Notes: a model not told the origin generated them from the sequence alone. A DNA stretch of 64,000 nt from an uncultured Clostridiaceae bacterium (GCA_964653805.1 CAZZFS010000002.1:81768-145767); one strand, 5' to 3'. Positions 3,887-52,464 are shown, counted from the first letter of the stretch. Numbers and translations are program-made.

Positions 3887-3957
3887 TAATTTTCCCTCCT
3901 CAAATTATTGATTAGTTTTATTGATAAAAATTAAAACTTTATTAAACCTATTTTATA

Positions 3958-7184: not shown

Positions 7185-7859
7185 CTATTTTAATTTTGTA
7201 TAATAATCTTCTTCCCAATCAAATCTTTTACCACTAGTTCTTAAATAATTAAATGAACCATATATATAATTTTTATCTCTTAAAATCTCTATCTTTTCCA
7301 CTTCTTCTAAATTTATTTTCCAAACACAACCCTGTAAAACATCACTATCATTTGTAATAGCTTTATCAAAACTTTTCTTTATTTTATTACACATTTCTAA
7401 AAAAACATTATCTTTTCTAAAAGTTTTAAATTTATCTCTTCTTACAAAAGCCTTTAATTCTTCTTTTGTAATATTTTTATTTTTTAATTCATTGTCAAAT
7501 AATTCTTTATCTTTTTTACTATCCGGAATGTATAAATTATTTAATATAAAAGAATATCTTCTAAAATCAGTTGTAAACACTTCATTTTTATTTTTATTAA
7601 ATGTTATTTTAACATCAAATCCTTCAACTGGATTACCTTTATGTTTTGGTGGACAAATTCCATTTTTAAATTTTACCCATGCCCATAAAGGGTATTTTAC
7701 ATTATGAATGTTTGGTATTTTTTCATTCATATTTTCTAAAACCCACTCATATGCATAACCCGATTTTTTTAAATCAACATATTCTTCATTAAATTCTAAA
7801 TATCCATCTTTAATTAATTTTTTTAAAGCATCACTTGTTTGGAAAGTTATTAATTTCAT
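7185..7859 (-). CDS. DUF3841-like protein
   Basis: MKLITFQT...YPLWAWV... at the N-terminus resembles DUF3841, from memory. Confidence 0.5.
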   Translation of the reverse strand: MKLITFQTSDALKKLIKDGYLEFNEEYVDLKKSGYAYEWVLENMNEKIPNIHNVKYPLWAWVKFKNGICPPKHKGNPVEGFDVKITFNKNKNEVFTTDFRRYSFILNNLYIPDSKKDKELFDNELKNKNITKEELKAFVRRDKFKTFRKDNVFLEMCNKIKKSFDKAITNDSDVLQGCVWKINLEEVEKIEILRDKNYIYGSFNYLRTSGKRFDWEEDYYTKLK

Positions 7860-8948: not shown

Positions 8949-9912
8949 TTACATATCTATTAATATATTCATAATCAAATCAATTATTACATCTTTTTCT
9001 TTTGAACTTGACTGTGCTACAAATAATGTAATTGCAACTAATGTTTTTGGATCTACTATGTTTTTATCATCTTTTTTTAATAATCCATAAAAGTTAAGAA
9101 AATATAAAAACATAGTTGCACCAATTCTTTTATTACCATCTATAAATACATGATTTTTAACTACTAAATACAAAAAATTACATGCTTTCTCTTCTATACT
9201 TGGATATATTTCTTGACCATCAAATTCTTGATATATGTTATTTATAATTGATTCTAGTCCGTCTATCTCTTTCTACACCAAATATATCACTACTTTTTTT
9301 AAAAGACATTTTATTTATTATTTCTAAACAATCTTCATATTTAATTCTTTTACTTAAATCAATGTTACCTTTTAATTTTTCTATTGTTTTAGTATCATAT
9401 TTTTCTAATGTTTCTAAAGCTTTTGTATATTCAGAAATTATTTTAATCATATTATAGCTTTCATCACTTCTTAAATCTTCATCAAGTCTAGTAGCTATAT
9501 CAATTAATTTTATTGTCTTTTCTAAATATTCTAATCTTTTTTTATTTACAGCATATCCTTTTAACATATAATCTTTTAATATTTTATTTGCCCATATTCT
9601 AAATTTTATACCTTTATTAGACTTTACCCTATATCCAACACTAATTATCATGTCTAAACTATAATATTCTACATTTCTTGTTACTTCTCTTTCGCCTTCT
9701 ATTCCAACTGTCGCAAATTTTGCGACAGTTGGAATATTTTCTAGTTCCTCTTTTAAAGCATTATTTATGTGTTTACCTATTGTTTTTACATCTCTATCAA
9801 AAAGTTCTGCCATTTGTTGCCTATTCAACCAAACTGATTCATCTTTAACATTCACTTCAAGGTTTACTTTTTCATCTTCAAATAAAATTATTTCATTTTT
9901 ATTTTTAATCAT
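8949..9912 (-). pseudogene. RhuM-like N-terminal region fused to a Doc/Fic (death-on-curing) domain, disrupted by a frameshift
   Basis: The upstream ORF (MIKNKNEIILFED...WLNRQQMAELF...) ends ...FGVERDRRTRINYK*. Another frame, open from 9272, continues KEIDGLESIINNIYQEFDGQEIYPSIEEKACNFLYLVVKNHVFIDGNKRIG (Doc motif). The frames overlap at 9238-9272. Confidence 0.7.
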
Positions 9913-10010: not shown

Positions 10011-10927
10011 TTATATAAATAACTCTTTCATACAATCAGTAATTGGCTTCATTTTTTCTTGACTAGCAGTAGTAGTTATAACCATATTTTTACTAGGTAC
10101 TATTATTATATATTGTCCATCTGAGCCATCATGATAAAATATACCATTCTTACAAATCCATAAATTATAACCATATCCATATTTAGGTAAAGTCCTTTCC
10201 TCATTATAATTTAATGGTGTTTCTATTTTTATTGATGACATTTCCTTTAACCAATCACTTGGAATAATTTGCTCATTATTATAACTTCCATTATTTAGTA
10301 TTAGTTCACCTAATTTGTGTAAATCACTAGGTGTTATTGTTAAACCAGTACATCCCATTGAATGTCCTTGTTCACTTTCAATCCAATCATAATTTTTTAT
10401 ATCAATTTCACTAAATATTTCTTTATTTACAAACTCACTTAATTTCATTTTAGTAGCTTTTTCAATAATCATTGACAATAAATATATGGGTGCATTAGTA
10501 TAAAAAAATATTCTCCTGGTTTATGTTTTATAGGATAATTAAGAACAAATTCACATAAATCATTTCCTTTTATTTGTTTAAGATGTTTTTCATTTAGTAT
10601 CATTTCTTCATAACCCATAGAAAGTGTAATTAAATGCTTAATTTTTGTTTCATTTAAATATTTTAGATTCCCTTTATTATTAATATTCACATCTCTAAAA
10701 TATGGCATAACATATTCCTCAACTCCATTAGGAAAATAATCTTTATTAATAGCAATTCCTAATGCAATAGAAGTTATAGTTTTACTTATTGATCTAACAT
10801 TTTTAAGACTTTCCTCCTTAAAAAAATGTTTATATTCTTTATTATCACAAGTAATAATAAGACTTTCTACATTTAATTTTTCATTTTTCATATTGTTTAT
10901 TATACTATTAAATATTTGCTCATTCAT
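10011..10927 (-). pseudogene. Beta-lactamase-family serine hydrolase split by a frameshift in an A7 tract
   Basis: The N-terminal ORF has SISK (SxxK) and ends PGEYFFILMHPYIYCQ*. The other frame reads ...FFYTNAPIYLLSMIIEKATKMKLSEF (YxN motif). The switch falls within the A7 run at 10502-10508. Confidence 0.75.
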
Positions 10928-17318: not shown

Positions 17319-17771
17319 TCATTGTTTTGAATAAAAACGAACTATTGATACATGCTCTCCTTTTTTTGTATTTTCAGGATATCTAGCAAGTCCCATTTTA
17401 CTAACATCCATATGAATAATTTCAAATGAATCAATATCTTCAATTCCATCGGCAGAAAAATTATTTAAAATATATTCGTATATATTTTTAATTCTCGGTC
17501 TTGGAAAAGAAGCAGTTCCAAAACTATGTGGAATTTCAACAACACATAAAGAAAGTAACTCTTTAGAAATTGGAGTTATTTCAAATTTACTCCAGTGAGA
17601 CCAATCAAAGAAATTTCCCTCTTTAATATTTCCAAATGAAATACCTTCTAAATAACAACGTCTTCCACTTTTTCCAACCCGAACAATTGGTTTAATTTTT
17701 TTACTCAACTGTTCTAACTCCAAATCATTAATCTTTTTTAACATCACATCATTTTTTAAAGCAGTATTCAT
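17319..17771 (-). CDS. Hypothetical protein
   Basis: 150-aa ORF, co-oriented, with no recognisable motif. Confidence 0.5.
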   Translation of the reverse strand: MNTALKNDVMLKKINDLELEQLSKKIKPIVRVGKSGRRCYLEGISFGNIKEGNFFDWSHWSKFEITPISKELLSLCVVEIPHSFGTASFPRPRIKNIYEYILNNFSADGIEDIDSFEIIHMDVSKMGLARYPENTKKGEHVSIVRFYSKQ

Positions 17772-25590: not shown

Positions 25591-26070
25591 TTATTCAATT
25601 ATTTCATAAACAATATCTCTTGCATTTGAAACATCAGAATTTATATTCGTACTAATATATTTAACAGCACTTGAAGAAACTTGACCTATAACTGCATCAA
25701 TTTTACCAAGTATAGAACCATCATTTGCAATAAATTTTATATTAAGTTTTAAATTATCTTTTGAATATTGACTATTTGTTATTTTAGCTGTTAATTTTGA
25801 TATATTATTTTTATAAATCACTTTACTATCAGTAATTAATACATCACCAGCTTTTTTTGGTTTTTCTATTTCAGAACTTATATTTTTCTTTTCTCCCTCT
25901 TTAGTTGAAATATAATTAATTGTACCTAAATTCATAGATGCTTTAGTAGCTATTTCAATTTTTTCTTTATTATTTAAAATATTTACTAATACGATTATCA
26001 GTGTTATTATTAATAATATTGCAACTACAATTGCTATCTTTTTTCTATTTAACATTATATTTGTCCACAT
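25591..26070 (-). CDS. Hypothetical membrane-anchored protein (paralog of 50537-51049)
   Basis: N-terminal TM helix. The C-terminal ~85 aa align without gaps to the 50537-51049 product, and both end in YEI[IV]E. Confidence 0.6.
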   Translation of the reverse strand: MWTNIMLNRKKIAIVVAILLIITLIIVLVNILNNKEKIEIATKASMNLGTINYISTKEGEKKNISSEIEKPKKAGDVLITDSKVIYKNNISKLTAKITNSQYSKDNLKLNIKFIANDGSILGKIDAVIGQVSSSAVKYISTNINSDVSNARDIVYEIIE

Positions 26071-26122
26071 ATCTTTCTACCCCCAAAAAAACTAATAATT
26101 ATATTTTATACTAAACAATAAA

Positions 26123-26150
26123 AATATACAATATATTTAACAAATTTCAA
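26123..26150 (-). promoter_or_regulatory. Candidate promoter of the 25591-26070 gene
   Basis: On the minus strand: TTGAAA (26150-26145), 16 nt, TATATT (26128-26123). Confidence 0.35.
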
Positions 26151-26155
26151 GAAAA

Positions 26156-26189
26156 TAATCCGATTTAGATATTTATCTAATTCGGATTA
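26156..26189. terminator. Strong hairpin closing the repeat-containing spacer
   Basis: TAATCCGATTTAGAT pairs with ATCTAATTCGGATTA (14 of 15 bp, 4-nt loop). T-rich sequence follows on both strands. Confidence 0.55.
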
Positions 26190-26206
26190 TTTTACTATGT
26201 AATATA

Positions 26207-26374
26207 ATTTTTATAAAAAAGATTTATATATGTAAATATATAAATAAGGTATATACAAAATCTAAAAAAATTAATATATAAACTGGGTAGTTAATTAATA
26301 TATTTTATTTCAGTTATTATATACCTTGACTATATAATAACACATTTTTTTTGCAAAATTTGTCGAAATTTGTA
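26207..26374 (-). repeat. Repeat unit A (candidate small-RNA gene)
   Basis: Shares five near-identical blocks in the same order with unit B. The minus strand has TTGCAA-16-TATAGT, the helix 26246-26255/26318-26327, the loop block AATTAACTACCCA, and hairpin 26223-26244 followed by a T run. Confidence 0.6.
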
Positions 26375-26490
26375 GATTATCCAAAAAACTTTATTTTTTT
26401 TAAATATTTCTTTGTTTTTTATTCTTTTTTTGTTATATTTTTATCCATTTTCAAAAAAAGATTTAATTCAGACTATTAAAATGGAATATG

Positions 26491-26655
26491 ATTTTTATAA
26501 AAAGGTGTATATTTGCAAATATATATATAAGGTATATTTGCAATTCAAAAAATATATAAAAATTGGGTAGTTAATTTTCACATGTTATTTTTTCTTTAAA
26601 TATACCTTGACTATATAATAACATATAATTTTTGCAAAATTTGTCGAAATTTGTA
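26491..26655 (-). repeat. Repeat unit B (candidate small-RNA gene)
   Basis: Same block order as unit A. TTGCAA (26637-26632), 16 nt, TATAGT (26615-26610). Helix 26529-26539/26598-26608. Palindrome 26508-26523 followed by a T run. Confidence 0.6.
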
Positions 26656-26671
26656 AAAAGACAAAACTTTT

Positions 26672-28318
26672 TTACTTTTTTTTACTTTTTTTTGTTGTTT
26701 TTTCTTTTAATTTAATCGTATCTCTTAATTTTCTATGATAAGAAATTGTAAATCTATGAATTTCATCTTGTAAAAAAGTTATAAAATTTAAAATTTTATC
26801 ATTTTCTAAATTAATTACATTACCATTTAAATCAATTAACTCTTTTGTTTTGTGCTTATCATTTTTAATCATACCATAAACAGATACATTTTTTTCTTCT
26901 GCTTCTTCCATCGCTTTTTTTACCATAGAAAGTTGAGTCTTACCACCATCTATTAATATTAAATCAGGTAACAACCATTCATCACTATGATTTAATCTTC
27001 TTTTTAAAATTTCATACATACTTTTAGGATCATCTTGAGTAAGTGTACTTTTAATTTTAAATTTTCTATACATTTTTTTATTAAATTTTCCATCTTCATA
27101 CCTTATCATACAACCAACAATATATTCATTTCTTAAATTAGATATATCATAACATTCAATTGATTCTATTGTTTCAGTAAAGCCTAACAACTTAGATAAC
27201 TCTTCTAAATTATTATATTTTTTGTTTTCCATATTTATTTTAATATTATTTTCAACCATTTTAATTAAATTTGCTTTTTCACCTTTTTTAGGACATATAA
27301 CATTTAAATTTATTTTTTTGTTTTCAAAAAACTCATTTAATAAATTTATAGATTCATCTTCTAATTTTATATATATTTTTTTAGGCATATCTTTATTATC
27401 TATATAATATGAAGATATTATTTGAGTTATAACTTCCTCTTGTTCTTCATTTTCTACATCTTCTAATTCTATATTATCATTTAAAACAACTTTATAATTT
27501 CTTATTTTAAAAACTTGAATATATATACTATTATTTTGATAAATATATCCAAATATATCTGTACTATTTTCATTTAAATTAGCAACTTGCTGTTTTTGTG
27601 CAATAGCATCAATACTTTCAATTCTTTTTTTTATAACATCAGCTTTTTCAAATTCTAATTTTTCTATTAAACTTTCAATATCTTTAATTAAAAGTTCATG
27701 AATTTGTTTCGTATTGCCTTGTAAAAATAAAATTATTTGATCAATCATTTTCTTATACTGTTCTAAATTAACATCATTTACACAAGGTCCCAAACATCTT
27801 CCAATATGATAATATAAACAAGGCTCTTTCTTTTTTGTTTTTTCAAGATTTAACTTACACCTTTTAACCGGAAATAACTGCTTTATCATCCTTAAAACTT
27901 CTCTTACAGCTGAAACATTTGTATATGGACCAAAATATAACGCCTTATCATTTTTTTTAGTTCTAGTAACATAAATAGTTGGATATTTTTCTTTAACACT
28001 TATTTTAATATATGGATATGTTTTATCATCTTTTAACATTACATTAAATTTTGGATTATGTTCTTTTATATAATTACATTCTAAAACCAAAGCCTCAACT
28101 TCATTATTTGTAACAATATATGTTATATTACAAACATTAGAAACCATTTTTTCAATTCTTGCAGATTTATTATTTTTTTGAAAATACTGTCTAACTCTTT
28201 TTCTTAATGAAATTGCTTTACCAACATAAATTATATTATCATCTTTATCCCTCATCATATATATACCAGGATTTAAAGGAATGTTATTTATTATTTCTCT
28301 TAATTTTTCACTTGCCAT
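26672..28318 (-). CDS. uvrC: Excinuclease ABC subunit C
   Basis: N-terminal GIY-YIG motif (GIYMMRDKDDNIIYVGKA), a UVR domain and a C-terminal endonuclease region. 548 aa. Confidence 0.95.
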   Translation of the reverse strand: MASEKLREIINNIPLNPGIYMMRDKDDNIIYVGKAISLRKRVRQYFQKNNKSARIEKMVSNVCNITYIVTNNEVEALVLECNYIKEHNPKFNVMLKDDKTYPYIKISVKEKYPTIYVTRTKKNDKALYFGPYTNVSAVREVLRMIKQLFPVKRCKLNLEKTKKKEPCLYYHIGRCLGPCVNDVNLEQYKKMIDQIILFLQGNTKQIHELLIKDIESLIEKLEFEKADVIKKRIESIDAIAQKQQVANLNENSTDIFGYIYQNNSIYIQVFKIRNYKVVLNDNIELEDVENEEQEEVITQIISSYYIDNKDMPKKIYIKLEDESINLLNEFFENKKINLNVICPKKGEKANLIKMVENNIKINMENKKYNNLEELSKLLGFTETIESIECYDISNLRNEYIVGCMIRYEDGKFNKKMYRKFKIKSTLTQDDPKSMYEILKRRLNHSDEWLLPDLILIDGGKTQLSMVKKAMEEAEEKNVSVYGMIKNDKHKTKELIDLNGNVINLENDKILNFITFLQDEIHRFTISYHRKLRDTIKLKEKTTKKSKKK

Positions 28319-28463: not shown

Positions 28464-28730
28464 TTATTCAGCAGCTTCTTCAGCTTCATTGTATTTCTCA
28501 ATAATCATGTTTTGTAACATTTCTCTAGTTTCAGTATTTATTGGATGAGCAATATCTTTAAATTCTCCGTTTGGAGTTTTTCTGCTAGGCATTGCTATAA
28601 ATAAACCTTTATCACTTTCGATAACTTTTATATCGTGAATTACGAATACGCTATCAATAGTTATAGAAGCTATAGCTTTCATCCTATTTTGAGAAGTTAC
28701 TTTTCTAACTCTTATATCAGTTATTTGCAT
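28464..28730 (-). CDS. spoVG: Septation/regulatory protein SpoVG
   Basis: [11 protein letters not shown]...[45 protein letters not shown] is the classic SpoVG sequence. Start set at the ATG after GGAAGG. Confidence 0.95.
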
Positions 28731-28764
28731 GTTCCACACCGCCTTCCTTAACTAGTATACTTAT

Positions 28765-41722: not shown

Positions 41723-42847
41723 TTATTTTTTAATCCCTAAAAAAATTTTATAATTCTCATAATAATTTTTATCTGCATCCAATCCAAAATGTTTAAATAT
41801 TTCACGTTTATACTTTATATTTTTAATATTTCTCAAATCTCTATTGTATTGAATATTTTTACCATCACCCAGCAAAACATTAATACTACTATGTATTCCA
41901 AATCCTATTCCAAAATCACAAAAATATTTTTTCAAAAAAATTTCTTCTTCACTATTATTTGATATTTCCGTTTTTAAATATATCAACCCATATTGCAAAT
42001 ATACATTTTTTCTTTTTGTACCGTCAAAAGCTCTACCATAAAATATAGGGAAATCCATTTCAAAAGGTTCTAGTACTTCATTACCAATAATTTCAAATTC
42101 TCCATAATAAAATATATTATCCATAACTTGTTCTGACAAAATAGCTTCACATTTTTTTAATTCATAAAAATTCAAATCTATTTCATCACTAATTTTTTTG
42201 TAAATTTTAACAATTAAAGCTTTCCCCATTAAATCCATTAATCCAAGATGTTTTTCTTCAATTTCTCCTTTTTCGATTTCTTTTTTCATTTTATAAACAT
42301 CTAACATTATTCTACCATATCCATATTGACGTCTTCCAACTCTAAAAATAAAATAATCACCTTCTTTAAATTTACAATGCTTTCTCTTTGAATTTTTAAA
42401 TTCAAAGAGTTTTTTCAAATCTTCTTTTGTACTATATTTTATCCACCAATCAAGCCACTCTCTTAACCCATCTAAACCTTTAGTGAAACTTCTACTATCA
42501 TTATCAGAAGAATAAAAAGTTGTTTGCGTAGTAAAATTAGCAATTAAAACTCTTGTTTTATAATAAAAATATACACCTACCGCATTCATCGCTTCCAATG
42601 CAGTAAAATTTAATTTTTTATTTTTTCCTCTTGATGTTTTTGGCAATATAATAGTTCTATTTTCAATAGTAAATTCATTTAATTCAACTTCTAAATAACT
42701 ATCTTGTGTAATTTCTATTTTTTTTACTAATTTATCTTTATCAAAATATAAATATATAGTATCATTAAATTTTATACATTCCCAAGATTTCTCAACTAGT
42801 CTTAAACCTAAATATTTTCTTTCTTCATTTTTTAATTCAAATAACAT
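41723..42847 (-). CDS. Hypothetical protein (possible immunity-protein-like fold)
   Basis: 374-aa ORF. The central FKEGDYFIFRVGRRQYGYGRIM motif is reminiscent of Imm26-type immunity proteins (memory only). Confidence 0.5.
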   Translation of the reverse strand: MLFELKNEERKYLGLRLVEKSWECIKFNDTIYLYFDKDKLVKKIEITQDSYLEVELNEFTIENRTIILPKTSRGKNKKLNFTALEAMNAVGVYFYYKTRVLIANFTTQTTFYSSDNDSRSFTKGLDGLREWLDWWIKYSTKEDLKKLFEFKNSKRKHCKFKEGDYFIFRVGRRQYGYGRIMLDVYKMKKEIEKGEIEEKHLGLMDLMGKALIVKIYKKISDEIDLNFYELKKCEAILSEQVMDNIFYYGEFEIIGNEVLEPFEMDFPIFYGRAFDGTKRKNVYLQYGLIYLKTEISNNSEEEIFLKKYFCDFGIGFGIHSSINVLLGDGKNIQYNRDLRNIKNIKYKREIFKHFGLDADKNYYENYKIFLGIKK

Positions 42848-42954
42848 CTTCTCACCTCATAAAACATTTATTTTTATATTATATCATTTTATTTTTAAAA
42901 AAAATGTCGAATTTTGTCGAAAACACATTTTAATTTAATATTTTTTATATAATA

Positions 42955-43033: not shown

Positions 43034-43852
43034 TTAACTAAATATAAAAAATTTAACTAAAATAACTATTGCAATTATAAATCTATAATATGCAAATATT
43101 GCAAAATCATGATTTTTAATATATTTAAGTAAGAATTTAATACTCAGTACTCCAACTATAGCTGAAACTATCATACCTATTAACAATTCTATACTAAAAC
43201 CTTCTATCATATCAGGCAATTTAAGTAATGCAGCTCCTGTTATTATTGGAACTGAAAGCAAAAATGTAAATTTAGCTGCAGCTTCACGAGTAACCCCCAT
43301 AAGTCTTGCAGTAAGCATTGTTGTTCCTGAACGTGAAAATCCTGGAATTACAGCTAAAGCTTGTGATAAACCAATTATTAAAGTTTGTTTTAATGTTAAA
43401 TCTTCATAATTAACTTCACTACCTTCATATTTTTTTTGTGCCCATTTATCACCTAAATATATAAATAATCCCATAACAGCAAGTGAAATAGCTATTATAT
43501 ATATATAACTTGGATTTCTAAATATAGACTCTACTTGACTCTCAAAAATTTTACCTATTAATGCTCCTGGAATTGTTGCAATAACTAAATACCAAAACAT
43601 TTTATTTTCAAATGAATCTTTTTTATGTATTATTTTTTCAGTTGCACCTTTTGCTAAATTAAACCAATCTTTCCAAAAAACTGCAAGTACTGCTACTAAT
43701 GTACCAAAATGTAATGCTACATCAAAAGCTAATGAATGTTCTTGCCAATTTAATAAATATGGCACTACTATTAAATGTCCAGAACTAGAAATAGGTAAAA
43801 ACTCACCTATTCCTTGTAATATTCCTAAAACTATTGCATGTATTATATCCAT
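43034..43852 (-). CDS. uppP: Undecaprenyl-diphosphate phosphatase
   Basis: GILQGIGEFLPISSSGH... and ...PGFSRSGTT motifs. Polytopic membrane protein of 272 aa. Confidence 0.93.
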   Translation of the reverse strand: MDIIHAIVLGILQGIGEFLPISSSGHLIVVPYLLNWQEHSLAFDVALHFGTLVAVLAVFWKDWFNLAKGATEKIIHKKDSFENKMFWYLVIATIPGALIGKIFESQVESIFRNPSYIYIIAISLAVMGLFIYLGDKWAQKKYEGSEVNYEDLTLKQTLIIGLSQALAVIPGFSRSGTTMLTARLMGVTREAAAKFTFLLSVPIITGAALLKLPDMIEGFSIELLIGMIVSAIVGVLSIKFLLKYIKNHDFAIFAYYRFIIAIVILVKFFIFS

Positions 43853-43867
43853 AAAATATTTCTCCTT

Positions 43868-44905
43868 TTATTCATCTAATAAAATTTTTGTATTTAAAAC
43901 ATAATTATCTTGTGTTTTTAAATACATAGTATCACCTTTTATAGCTTCAAAATTAACAAAATTTGATACTCTTCCAATTTTTTCATTAGAATCTTTTGCA
44001 ACGTTAACTACATAAGTTGGATAAACTAAATACACACCTTCGTTATTTGAATATGTTTTTACAACTTCAGTATCTTTTAACGTTATAGTTTCTTTAATTT
44101 TATTATTTGAAACAATATATACTTTATCTTTTGATTCTTCAGACATAAAATATAAATTGTCATCATAATCTATACCTATCATATCAACTTTTTCTTTAAA
44201 TAAAGAAATTAAAGTATTTCCAACATAAATATTTGATTTACTATCTTCATAATAAACTTTATCAGTATGTTGTAACATTATCATTTTATCAATAAGAATA
44301 CCAGATTTTACTTGTGTCATACTATTAAATAAATCTACTTTATAAATTATATTATTTGTTGCTTTTGTTGTTTTAGTTTCTACATTGATATATATCATAT
44401 TTATTATTGGAGACATATTCATATCTTTTATACAAGAAAAATTATTTACTGTAAATGTATTATATGACATTTTCTTTTTAGTATTAATTTCATAAGTTTT
44501 AAGTTGTAATTTTGAAGAATTATCACCTTCAACTTGTGTAAAATATAATATTAGATTTTTATCATATAATAAATTATAATAACATATAGGATTATCTTCT
44601 TCAATTATATCAACATTTTTAGCATCTTCTACAGTATTTATATATATTTTTTTATCTTTTAAATAAGTATAATATTTATTATTAAAAGAATATTGAAGTA
44701 AGGTAGATCCTTCTTCTATTTTTAATTTAGCCACTGTTTTTTCATTAGTTTTTGAATCATTAGTTACAGTAGTTCCGTCAACAGCACTACTTTGTCCAAG
44801 ATTGTATATAAAATTATCTACTAGTGTTAAACCAATAACATCAATAATAGTACCTACCGAAGCAAATATCAAAATATATATAAAAAACTTTTTTAATTTT
44901 TTCAT
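43868..44905 (-). CDS. Hypothetical membrane-anchored protein
   Basis: 345-aa ORF with an N-terminal TM helix. 15-nt gaps on both sides (glycosidase gene upstream, uppP downstream). Confidence 0.55.
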   Translation of the reverse strand: MKKLKKFFIYILIFASVGTIIDVIGLTLVDNFIYNLGQSSAVDGTTVTNDSKTNEKTVAKLKIEEGSTLLQYSFNNKYYTYLKDKKIYINTVEDAKNVDIIEEDNPICYYNLLYDKNLILYFTQVEGDNSSKLQLKTYEINTKKKMSYNTFTVNNFSCIKDMNMSPIINMIYINVETKTTKATNNIIYKVDLFNSMTQVKSGILIDKMIMLQHTDKVYYEDSKSNIYVGNTLISLFKEKVDMIGIDYDDNLYFMSEESKDKVYIVSNNKIKETITLKDTEVVKTYSNNEGVYLVYPTYVVNVAKDSNEKIGRVSNFVNFEAIKGDTMYLKTQDNYVLNTKILLDE

Positions 44906-44920
44906 ACTTTTCCTCTTTTC

Positions 44921-45892
44921 CTATTCAGACTTTGTTGCATTTGGTTTTGTTATTATAAATGCATTTGGAACATATCTTTCACCCATTATATCACTTGGAG
45001 TATTTACAACTTTCTCATCATATACCATAGTGCTTGATGCTCCACCATCTAAATTAAATGCGTTATATGCACCATGTTGTAATAATATATCTTGAACATT
45101 TTTTAAGGTTGCTCCTATACTTCCTGCTTGTCTACCATCTATTACTAGCATTAAAATAGCTCCATCTTTTTTTTGTCCAATTGCTGTTCTTGGTTGAATT
45201 CCCCAACCACCATCACCACTTTTTATAGTAGTCTGACCATTAATTATTATAACAGGTCCAAAAGAAACAGCACTTTTCAAACCTAAAGATTTCATTTTTG
45301 TATACGTCATAGAATTTGAAACAACCATTCTATTTTCAGAATCAATTCCTACTGTTTTATATGAAGTTTGTTGTCCTCCATTTTTTAATTCACCATTTGC
45401 TATAACAATACCATCTGCTTTACCACCAGTACCTAATGCATCATCTGCAAAACCACCAGCATTAATTCCACCTACGGCATCATTTTCTTCAACTATTTGA
45501 GATGTTGTAGCACCTACCTTTCCCATTCTAGGAGAAGTAGCAAGTTTTACCCTTGAAGGATCATCAATAACTAATAAATAACCCTTAAAAGTTTTTGTAC
45601 TAACATCAATTAATTCTATACCATCAGTTACATTTTCATCTACTTTTATATCCGTAACTGCTTGATCTTCTATATTTTCATTAGGTCTATTTTTTTCAAG
45701 TATTTTATTTATTTCATCTTGACTTAAAAACCATGTAGCAAAATATTGATGTGACATTGTTGTCATCGCTGTTGTTACAAGCATTTCCTTAGTATTTGTA
45801 AATGGTCCATAATACACCAATGCTACTGATAATATTGGTATATAAATCAACTCAAATATAACAAATAAAATTATTATCTTTAATTTTTTCAT
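44921..45892 (-). CDS. Phosphodiester glycosidase (DUF2233) family protein
   Basis: N-terminal TM helix. INAGGF, PRTAIGQKKDG and AFNLDGGASSTMV motifs. Confidence 0.75.
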   Translation of the reverse strand: MKKLKIIILFVIFELIYIPILSVALVYYGPFTNTKEMLVTTAMTTMSHQYFATWFLSQDEINKILEKNRPNENIEDQAVTDIKVDENVTDGIELIDVSTKTFKGYLLVIDDPSRVKLATSPRMGKVGATTSQIVEENDAVGGINAGGFADDALGTGGKADGIVIANGELKNGGQQTSYKTVGIDSENRMVVSNSMTYTKMKSLGLKSAVSFGPVIIINGQTTIKSGDGGWGIQPRTAIGQKKDGAILMLVIDGRQAGSIGATLKNVQDILLQHGAYNAFNLDGGASSTMVYDEKVVNTPSDIMGERYVPNAFIITKPNATKSE

Positions 45893-51542: not shown

Positions 51543-52464
51543 TTAAGCTTCCTTAGTTAATATCGGTATAATTTGTTTTTTTCTAGAAACCACACCCTCT
51601 AAAAAAGCACTATTTTCAATTAATTTAACACTATATGCTTTTTCAACTATACTAGCTTTTTCACCAAATACAATTACTTGAGAATTACCATTTACAATAT
51701 CTGTTATTGCAAAAACAAATAAATCTAAATTTCTATCTTCTATTTCTTTTTTTATTTCTTCTTCAATATTTTCTTTTCTTTTCATTACATCATCTATTGA
51801 AACAGTATTTACTTGAGCTATAACAGTTTTTATTTCTTTTAACATAACTTCTTTAGCATCGATACCTAATAATTCTTTTTCAGAAAAGCTACTTAAATCT
51901 GTTCCGAGCTTTTAACATATCCATACCATAAATATTAATATCAATATCAACTAATTTTAACAATTCATTAGCAATTTCTTTATCTTCATTTGTACAAGTT
52001 GGAGATTTAAAAAGTAAAGTGTCAGAAATTATTGCACTTAACATTAAAACAGCATATTTTTTTTCTATTTCTAAATTATTTTCTTTATATAATTTATATA
52101 ACACTGTTGCTGTACATCCAACTGGCTCAGCACGATAATATAATGGTGAATCCGTTTTAAAATCAGATATTCTATGATGATCAATAACTTTTAAAATATT
52201 AGCATTTTCAATACCTTTTACACTTTGACTAAATTCATTATGATCTACAAGTATTACATTTTGACCTTCTACTACTTCTTCTAAAAATTCTGGTACATCT
52301 ATATTTAAATAATTTAAAACATACTCTGTTTCTTTATTTATTTTTCCCAAAACACAAGCTTTAGCTTCATTTCCTAATTTTTTTTCAATATCTGCCATAA
52401 CAATTGCAGATGTTGTAGTATCTGTATCAGGACTTTTATGTCCAAAAATCAAAATTTCTTTCAT
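51543..52464 (-). pseudogene. ppaC: Manganese-dependent (family II, DHH) inorganic pyrophosphatase, interrupted by a 1-nt frameshift
   Basis: The N-terminal ORF has HKSPDTDT, VDHNE and DHH motifs and ends ...DMLKARNRFK*. The next frame reads GTDLSSFSEKELLGIDAKEV...AQVNTV...GVVSRKKQIIP. The frames overlap at 51889-51911. Confidence 0.85.

Follow-up and report, generated by a model that had tools for sequence, protein, structure and literature searches.

Does the tandem repeat that lies between uvrC and the next gene in this uncultured Clostridia lineage give rise to an RNA or a protein, or does it act only as DNA? The initial annotation read it as a duplicated small-RNA gene on the minus strand, and every computational test proposed along with that reading supports it. 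Here we describe the repeat, its homologues in related genomes, its promoters and its predicted RNA, and we weigh other explanations as the evidence that bears on them arises.

A tandem repeat downstream of uvrC

The GC content of the window (the whole 64-kb stretch of DNA that was analysed) is ~24% throughout, with the repeat locus at ~15–20%. Nearly all genes of the window lie on the minus strand. Around the repeat, their order is a DUF2344 gene, spoVG (28464–28739), uvrC (26672–28318, 548 aa), a 600-bp intergenic region, a 159-aa membrane-protein ORF without a family match (ORF159, 25591–26070), a GH18/Cu_amine_oxidN1 gene and an SNF2 helicase gene. The nearest named homologues of UvrC carry the label “MAG: Clostridia bacterium”, and all are 535–571 aa long; shortening of uvrC by an insertion was rejected on this lineage-wide length. 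UvrC of the window and its homologues contains GIY-YIG and RNase H-like domains, the last Pfam match ending at residue 525, and none of these proteins gave a match to a helix-hairpin-helix domain. Elsewhere in the window, two genes are each apparently split into adjacent or overlapping ORFs: one at 51543–52464 (DHH, 191 aa, and DHHA2, 100 aa), and one at 10011–10927, where a beta-lactamase-fold fragment of 155 aa overlaps a 152-aa ORF. Both pairs may be frameshifts or pseudogenes.

The two units, A (26207–26374) and B (26491–26655), lie where they had first been placed, and all the blocks described as shared between them were recovered. Three blocks are exact in both units, with diverged filler between them: a 27-nt block (26348–26374 in A, 26629–26655 in B), a 22-nt block (26321–26342 and 26602–26623) and a 13-nt block (26284–26296 and 26564–26576). 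Each occurs exactly twice in the 64-kb window, even when one to three mismatches are allowed; the occurrences expected from dinucleotide shuffles are 0.00, 0.02 and 0.19, respectively. A covariance-model scan of the 64-kb window with filters off found no third copy.

The spacing of ~283 bp given initially agrees with the tandem period, which is 280–284 bp (~281 bp), but the limits drawn for the units were too narrow. Homology runs from 26192 to 26427 and from 26476 to 26708 and takes in the final codons of uvrC; of 500 shuffles, 3 equalled the score of this local alignment. Upstream of unit A, an A-rich spacer (26376–26430, minus strand) resembles the 3′ end of uvrC, so the duplication probably copied the end of that gene too, and the spacer is probably a relic of the event. 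Identity between A and B varies widely along the unit: 11/11 positions match in the 5′ helix arm and 42/49 in the promoter block, but the filler matches at just 11/20 and 20/28. Such a pattern is what an old duplication would leave once parts of the unit had come under selection.

Six-frame translation and a list of short ORFs bore out the earlier statement that neither strand offers a start codon with a ribosome-binding site. No ORF is common to A and B or to the unit of the most distant relative (L008, below), and none in the units is preceded by a ribosome-binding site. These results make it highly unlikely that the locus is a type I toxin–antitoxin pair or a small-protein gene, a reading to which a 28-aa GTG ORF in unit B and plus-strand TTG ORFs running from the 27-nt block would otherwise lend themselves; the Phe-rich peptides given by the latter are simply the complement of A-rich DNA.

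Homologous units in related genomes

Through homologues of UvrC and ORF159 we reached eight distinct homologous units in five genomes, all of them downstream of uvrC or of a uvrC–DUF1540 gene pair. Loci L005 and L020 hold two units each (UvrC 98% identical in L005; ORF159 86% and 84%). L006 and L019 derive from a single sample (UvrC 92%), L006 ending in the promoter of a unit and L019 beginning there. L008, L009 and L017 (UvrC 74%) each have the same single unit, which follows uvrC and a small DUF1540 gene. Relatives at 98%, 92% and 74% UvrC identity all keep the long-range helix and the C-rich loop described below.

Two covariance models were built, R1 from four units with L008 excluded and R2 from all eight. 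Close units scored 88–136 bits (unit A 123, unit B 136), and the L008 unit scored 51 bits with R1, the model that had not seen it. Neither model found a further copy in ~232 kb of related loci, nor a member of the family near uvrC in the relatives with 70% UvrC identity (L011, L018 and L021–L024). An exact pattern for the RNA core had no match in GTDB genomes; its matches in JGI metagenomes and IMG/VR fall inside a phage gene and were discarded as chance, as were five unrelated matches in GTDB genomes to a pattern combining the –10 element with the 5′ helix arm. Since no true match was found, the representative genomes include neither the species nor its close relatives. Searched against plasmids and phages, the unit gave no match. 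These comparisons indicate that the unit is a narrowly distributed, syntenic element and not a dispersed one.

The same data bear on whether the units might be miniature mobile elements in decay, or the ends of an insertion sequence. Being repeated and AT-rich, they might be taken for such elements, and the assemblies of relatives break at or near them (L006 ends inside a unit). Against this stand the missing extra copies in the window and the ~232 kb of related loci, the failure to match any plasmid or phage sequence, the syntenic position beside uvrC in five genomes, and the lack of terminal inverted repeats, target duplications and transposase. As for further breaks, in L007 the contig ends 11 bp past uvrC (7645–7655), and in L010 it ends 63 bp past uvrC, where a simple 11-bp tandem repeat (AATAGAAAAAT; 3895–3945) directly follows the gene. 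The probability of a mobile origin is, in our estimate, very small; within the window and the ~232 kb of related loci, the units are not the termini of a dispersed element.

In L009, the contig end (3255–3424) consists of head-to-tail repeats of ~35 bp (TTTTACAAAGTTAGCCCAAGAGAGGTCAAAAATTA) without spacers, ~100 bp past the second terminator. No DUF1540 gene follows uvrC in the window. A block of genes for NAGPA, a 345-aa protein and undecaprenyl-diphosphatase directly follows uvrC–DUF1540 in the 70% relatives (L021, 12098–15019) and lies ~15 kb away from uvrC in the window (43034–45892), a difference that points to rearrangement of the DNA surrounding uvrC.

Promoters with Spo0A-type boxes

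The promoter proposed initially for each unit, TTGCAA-16-TATAGT, is not conserved: the L008 unit reads ATGCGA and TAAAAG at the corresponding hexamers. What is invariant in all eight units is an extended –10 element, TGnTATTAT, found as TGTTATTAT at 26334–26342 in unit A and at 26615–26623 in unit B (minus strand), with predicted starts near 26327 and 26608, respectively. The first A of the AAGG that follows lies 7 nt downstream of TGnTATTAT, so that the predicted start and the 5′ end of P1 are the same nucleotide, the first A of the helix. Read in this way, the promoter removes an early reservation that a start 7 nt after the –10 would clip the 5′ helix arm.

No –35 hexamer lies 17–18 bp from the –10 in the units. 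Instead, TCGACA (within TTCGACA) lies exactly 21 nt upstream of TATTAT. Read on the other strand, TTCGACA is the Spo0A box TGTCGAA. The 27-nt block had been recognized correctly as invariant in both units, but it holds more than a –35 region, for it carries Spo0A-type boxes. On the minus strand, the block of unit A (26348–26374) contains one perfect 0A box, TTCGACA (TGTCGAA at 26361–26367 on the plus strand), as does that of unit B (26629–26655; plus-strand TGTCGAA at 26642–26648). In the window units the flanking heptamers at minus and plus 10 bp, ATCTACA and TTTGCAA, match the box at only 5/7 and 4/7 positions. L005_u2, L020_u2 and L006, however, carry two perfect boxes in 10-bp phasing (TTCGACA-AAT-TTCGACA). 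The spacing between TGnTATTAT and the TTCGACA block is fixed in all eight units. Promoter-like hexamers, like AU hairpins, arise easily by chance at this low GC, and a promoter scan returned 19 sites against 17 expected. By-eye inspection of the block noticed no LexA/SOS palindrome (GAAC-N4-GTTC).

In spoIIG and spoIIE, the –35-like element is spaced 22 and 21 bp from the –10, and Spo0A~P is required. The unit promoters resemble this class in their consensus 0A boxes, which in L005_u2, L020_u2 and L006 stand in tandem with a 3-bp spacer, in an overlapping –35-like TCGACA, and in the position of that hexamer 21 nt from a good –10, too far for unaided RNA polymerase. They differ in having an extended TGn –10 and in driving a predicted non-coding RNA instead of a sporulation operon. 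TGTCGAA, the core Spo0A box, is also the motif recognized by Clostridioides difficile Spo0A through its DNA-binding domain (PMC3485338). Spo0A~P binds as a dimer, two boxes 3 bp apart forming a footprinted site (PMC2731898), and spoIIG and spoIIE are sigma-A-dependent members of the Spo0A regulon that Spo0A activates (PMC12090719). On this architecture, the chance that Spo0A controls the unit promoters is, in our judgement, about even. The only sporulation gene seen in the window is spoVG; spo0A was not seen there.

Box modules elsewhere in the lineage

The window contains four perfect Spo0A boxes, against 1.5 expected. The two outside the units form a tandem pair on the minus strand (TTCGACA-AAA-TTCGACA, 42905–42921, in a module at 42860–42925); it has the extended –10 TGATATAAT (TGaTATAAT) 21 nt downstream and precedes a gene for a 374-aa protein with an Imm26 domain (41723–42847). 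This layout is the same as that of the unit promoters. It recurs at L011 4960–5140 (identical in L018 from position 81), where tandem perfect boxes are followed, after 21 nt, by TGGTATACT. On the opposite strand of L011, hand translation gives a putative 38-aa ORF (MTNIIQKALAYLVHRQALKKRNLNFKRHKSYADSFLK) after GGAGGTG, so that the promoter would drive an antisense RNA.

In L021–L024, each 21-kb locus has only two perfect TGTCGAA boxes, and they form a tandem pair (9528–9544) ~120 bp upstream of spoVG, in the gap that separates it from the DUF2344 gene. These loci, from relatives with 70% UvrC identity, also encode SpoIVA (for example at 17348–18829 in L022). As far as is known, SpoIVA is specific to endospore formers. 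Its presence suggests that the lineage sporulates, and Spo0A is therefore expected in the group.

A predicted structured RNA

All units share one order of parts: the box block, TGnTATTAT, CAAGGUAUAU, one or more loop hairpins, AUAUACCUU, T1, a tail and T2. The closing helix P1, formed by AAGGUAUAU and AUAUACCUU, comprises 9–11 bp and is kept in all eight units. Within it, an apical C-rich loop, AACUACCC(A), sits on one or two AU-rich hairpins, and in L008, the most distant relative, the loop reads AACCACCA. In L005_u1 and L020_u1, the loop hairpin is doubled within P1, giving two identical loops per predicted RNA. The tail, UUUUUAUAAAAAUUAUAUUAMAUAG, is nearly invariant across units.

The body of the unit A RNA is predicted from the covariance model, folds and pair counts at 26195–26327 (minus strand), with the 5′ arm of P1 at 26318–26327, the AACUACCC loop block at 26284–26296, the 3′ arm at 26246–26255, the AU hairpin T1 at 26222–26245 and a U-run at 26214–26221, after which comes the conserved AU-rich tail. 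On the same evidence, the unit B body spans 26479–26608 (minus strand): 5′ arm 26598–26608, AACUACCC loop block 26564–26576, 3′ arm 26529–26539, AU hairpin at ~26505–26528, a U-run and the conserved tail UUUUUAUAAAAAUCAUAUU. The helix arms had been placed at these same positions in the initial annotation, together with an A:T to T:A switch between the units, and both were confirmed; the AU hairpin described for each unit is likewise present.

Pairing was counted in a covariance-model alignment of the eight units, which form a shallow clade and were fitted to the model. Paired cells made up 95.3% overall and 97.5% in P1. Five pairs are changed on both sides, two of them in P1. In L019, one P1 pair has gone from G-C to A-U, and the second P1 pair is an A-C mismatch. 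Three units close the inner end of P1 with A-U, three with U-A and one with G-U, which generalizes the A:T to T:A observation made within the window. None of 500 shuffles reached the observed pairing, and sliding the 3′ partners left 19–62% of cells paired. With eight sequences from a shallow clade in a model-fitted alignment, the covariation is suggestive of a conserved RNA helix and not decisive.

Eleven cells in P1 and P2 are G-U, with UGUGUACCUU of L005_u2 and L020_u2 as an example. Read from the other strand, each would become an A-C mismatch, which indicates that the RNA is read from the uvrC strand. P1, T1, T2 and the apical C-rich loop all reappear in independent minimum-free-energy folds of the full-length homologues, at z scores of –4.3 to –6.1; unit A reaches –5.7 with T2, and unit B is weaker (–2.5). 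Core-only folds gave z of about –2.3 and –2.6 on the uvrC strand. Two treatments of the raw sequences were set aside: MAFFT misaligned the 3′ arm of L008 and RNAalifold paired promoter DNA with the terminator, and a hand-set structure and covariance-model-based alignments took their place. At gathering thresholds Rfam 15 matched nothing anywhere in the window, and at E ≤ 10 nothing in 25900–26900.

These patterns also weigh on the alternative in which the units act only as DNA, as a duplicated Spo0A-controlled promoter or operator, or as a decoy, with no functional RNA. The 27-nt box block is the best-conserved piece of the unit, and the helix arms are inverted repeats in the DNA as well, as that alternative would have it. 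The G-U pairs and compensatory changes, however, keep pairing on one strand only; the L008 unit ends in a hairpin and U-run of wholly different sequence, which fits a terminator and not a protein site; and a promoter facing two terminators can drive only a short RNA. We regard a purely DNA-level role as decidedly improbable, and it is likely, from the conserved parts and the predicted folds, that a structured sRNA is made from the units.

Putative terminators and the relation to ORF159

After unit A, the hairpin that had been noticed in the spacer was confirmed and now extends over 26152–26193 (minus strand), with arms that are 95% complementary; we term this strong predicted terminator T2. 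At the T2 position of unit B (26444–26485, minus strand) lies a degenerate second hairpin (UCCAUUUU ... AAAAUGGA), and L005, L019, L020 and L008 also have a stable hairpin there. Comparison of the sequences suggests a G-C to A-U change in T2 of L019. In L008, the T2 stem is unrelated in sequence to those of the other units, and T1 is replaced at the same place by a different, GC-containing hairpin (AGGAUU/AAUCCU) followed by U5. Position and shape are thus kept where sequence is not, as expected for terminators. A terminator scan missed T1 for lack of G-C pairs in its stem; a hairpin and U-run of different sequence stand at the same place in L008.

Between T2 and ORF159, the minus strand carries a separate promoter for ORF159, TTGAAA-16-TATATT, and its ribosome-binding site UGGGGGUAGAAAGAUAUG (26071–26151). 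Within this region, UGGGGGUAG is complementary to the loop sequence CUACCC of the predicted sRNA, a match of 6 bp only, and GGGUAG is kept before ORF159 in the window, L005, L019 and L020. In a window-wide target prediction, ORF159 ranked second among 83 ORFs and tied with era at about –10.6 kcal/mol; given the 6-bp seed and this tie, the prediction was dropped as a discriminator. ORF159 may be a target, and we treat it as a weak candidate only.

The complementarity allows another arrangement, in which the unit serves as a cis-acting leader or attenuator for ORF159: transcription from the unit A promoter would run past T1 and T2 into ORF159, and CUACCC would pair with GGGUAG in cis. The position of unit A directly upstream of ORF159 in the window, L005, L019 and L020, each with GGGUAG, is what a leader would show. 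Yet two hairpin–U-run terminators and the separate TTGAAA-16-TATATT promoter intervene, and unit B stands ~550 bp upstream of ORF159 with unit A in between. In L008 and L009, moreover, the unit follows uvrC–DUF1540, and what comes after it is a strong terminator and a repeat array, not ORF159. Rfam holds no matching leader. A leader function is improbable on this evidence, and we retain the reading of the units as independent sRNA genes.

Discussion

Taken as a whole, our explanation is that the units are two paralogous sRNA genes (~115–180 nt) on the uvrC strand, probably activated by Spo0A; we lean towards it with modest confidence. It would begin with an old tandem duplication of ~281 bp, the end of uvrC included, that gave rise to the two genes. 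Phosphorylated Spo0A, bound to the boxes as a tandem dimer, would then activate sigma-A RNA polymerase as at spoIIG and spoIIE. The presumed direction of regulation is positive, and the RNA would be made once Spo0A is active, at entry into stationary phase or sporulation. The transcript would start at the first A of CAAGGUAUAU, and P1 would enclose one or two loop hairpins. The AU hairpin and U-run would end a form of ~115 nt; a second terminator, after the AU-rich single-stranded tail, would end a form of ~180 nt. The exposed loop could finally pair with ribosome-binding sites of the GGGUAG or GGUGG type, and translation would be blocked.

The last step is the most tentative of these. The apical loop AAUUAACUACCCA is the sole invariant part of the interior (L008 keeps UAACCACCA), and it is C-rich and unpaired in every fold. 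By analogy with other Firmicute sRNAs that have C-rich loops, pairing with G-rich ribosome-binding sites is the likeliest single mode of action, though in absolute terms we hold it to be rather doubtful.

RsaE/RoxS and the sporulation-specific CsfG are base-pairing sRNAs of Firmicutes with C-rich loops, under the regulators ResD/Rex or sigma-F/G. Like them, the units would give a short independent transcript (predicted here) with its own promoter and an intrinsic terminator, and unpaired C-rich apical motifs, doubled in L005_u1 and L020_u1, that could pair with a G-rich Shine-Dalgarno sequence. The resemblance is functional only, since the units have no Rfam match at E ≤ 10. Their loop is AACUACCC in place of UCCC or CCCC runs, the loop hairpins lie inside a long-range closing helix, and the proposed regulator is Spo0A and not ResD/Rex or sigma-F/G.

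A second comparison is with SpoX and SpoY, which reportedly act on spo0A mRNA. The unit RNAs, in contrast, appear to be an output of Spo0A, and the Rfam scan detected no homology. SpoX and SpoY are clostridial sRNAs of the sporulation-initiation network of Clostridioides difficile (PMC10267692), and the likeness lies in a clostridial sRNA tied to the Spo0A decision, a tie that is putative here.

The predicted sRNA family is thus new, narrowly distributed and previously undescribed, and it is of a familiar kind. Its mechanism, as proposed, is not of a new kind, and the uncultured host limits immediate experiments. If the explanation is right, the units would provide a clean, testable case of an sRNA directly under the sporulation master regulator Spo0A, with a promoter that can be read almost wholly from sequence, perfect tandem 0A boxes replacing the –35. 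The corresponding search rule (TTCGACA-N3-TTCGACA, 21 nt, TGnTAnnnT) flagged other candidate Spo0A targets in the loci examined, including a putative antisense RNA. The family would also add an RNA to what is known of a poorly known, very AT-rich group of Clostridia represented only by metagenomes.

A broader and unlikely proposal is that both RNAs are made under direct control of Spo0A~P and either mimic an anti-Shine-Dalgarno sequence or titrate an RNA-binding protein. As mimics, the AACUACCC loops, one or two per RNA and from two genes per genome, would bind mRNAs with ribosome-binding sites of the GGGUAG/GGUGG type once sporulation or stationary phase sets in. If this is true, Spo0A would gain a post-transcriptional arm in an uncultured Clostridia lineage, and the recurring module (tandem boxes, 21-nt spacer, extended –10), present as well at the putative antisense RNA of L011, would be the signature of a small non-coding part of the Spo0A regulon.
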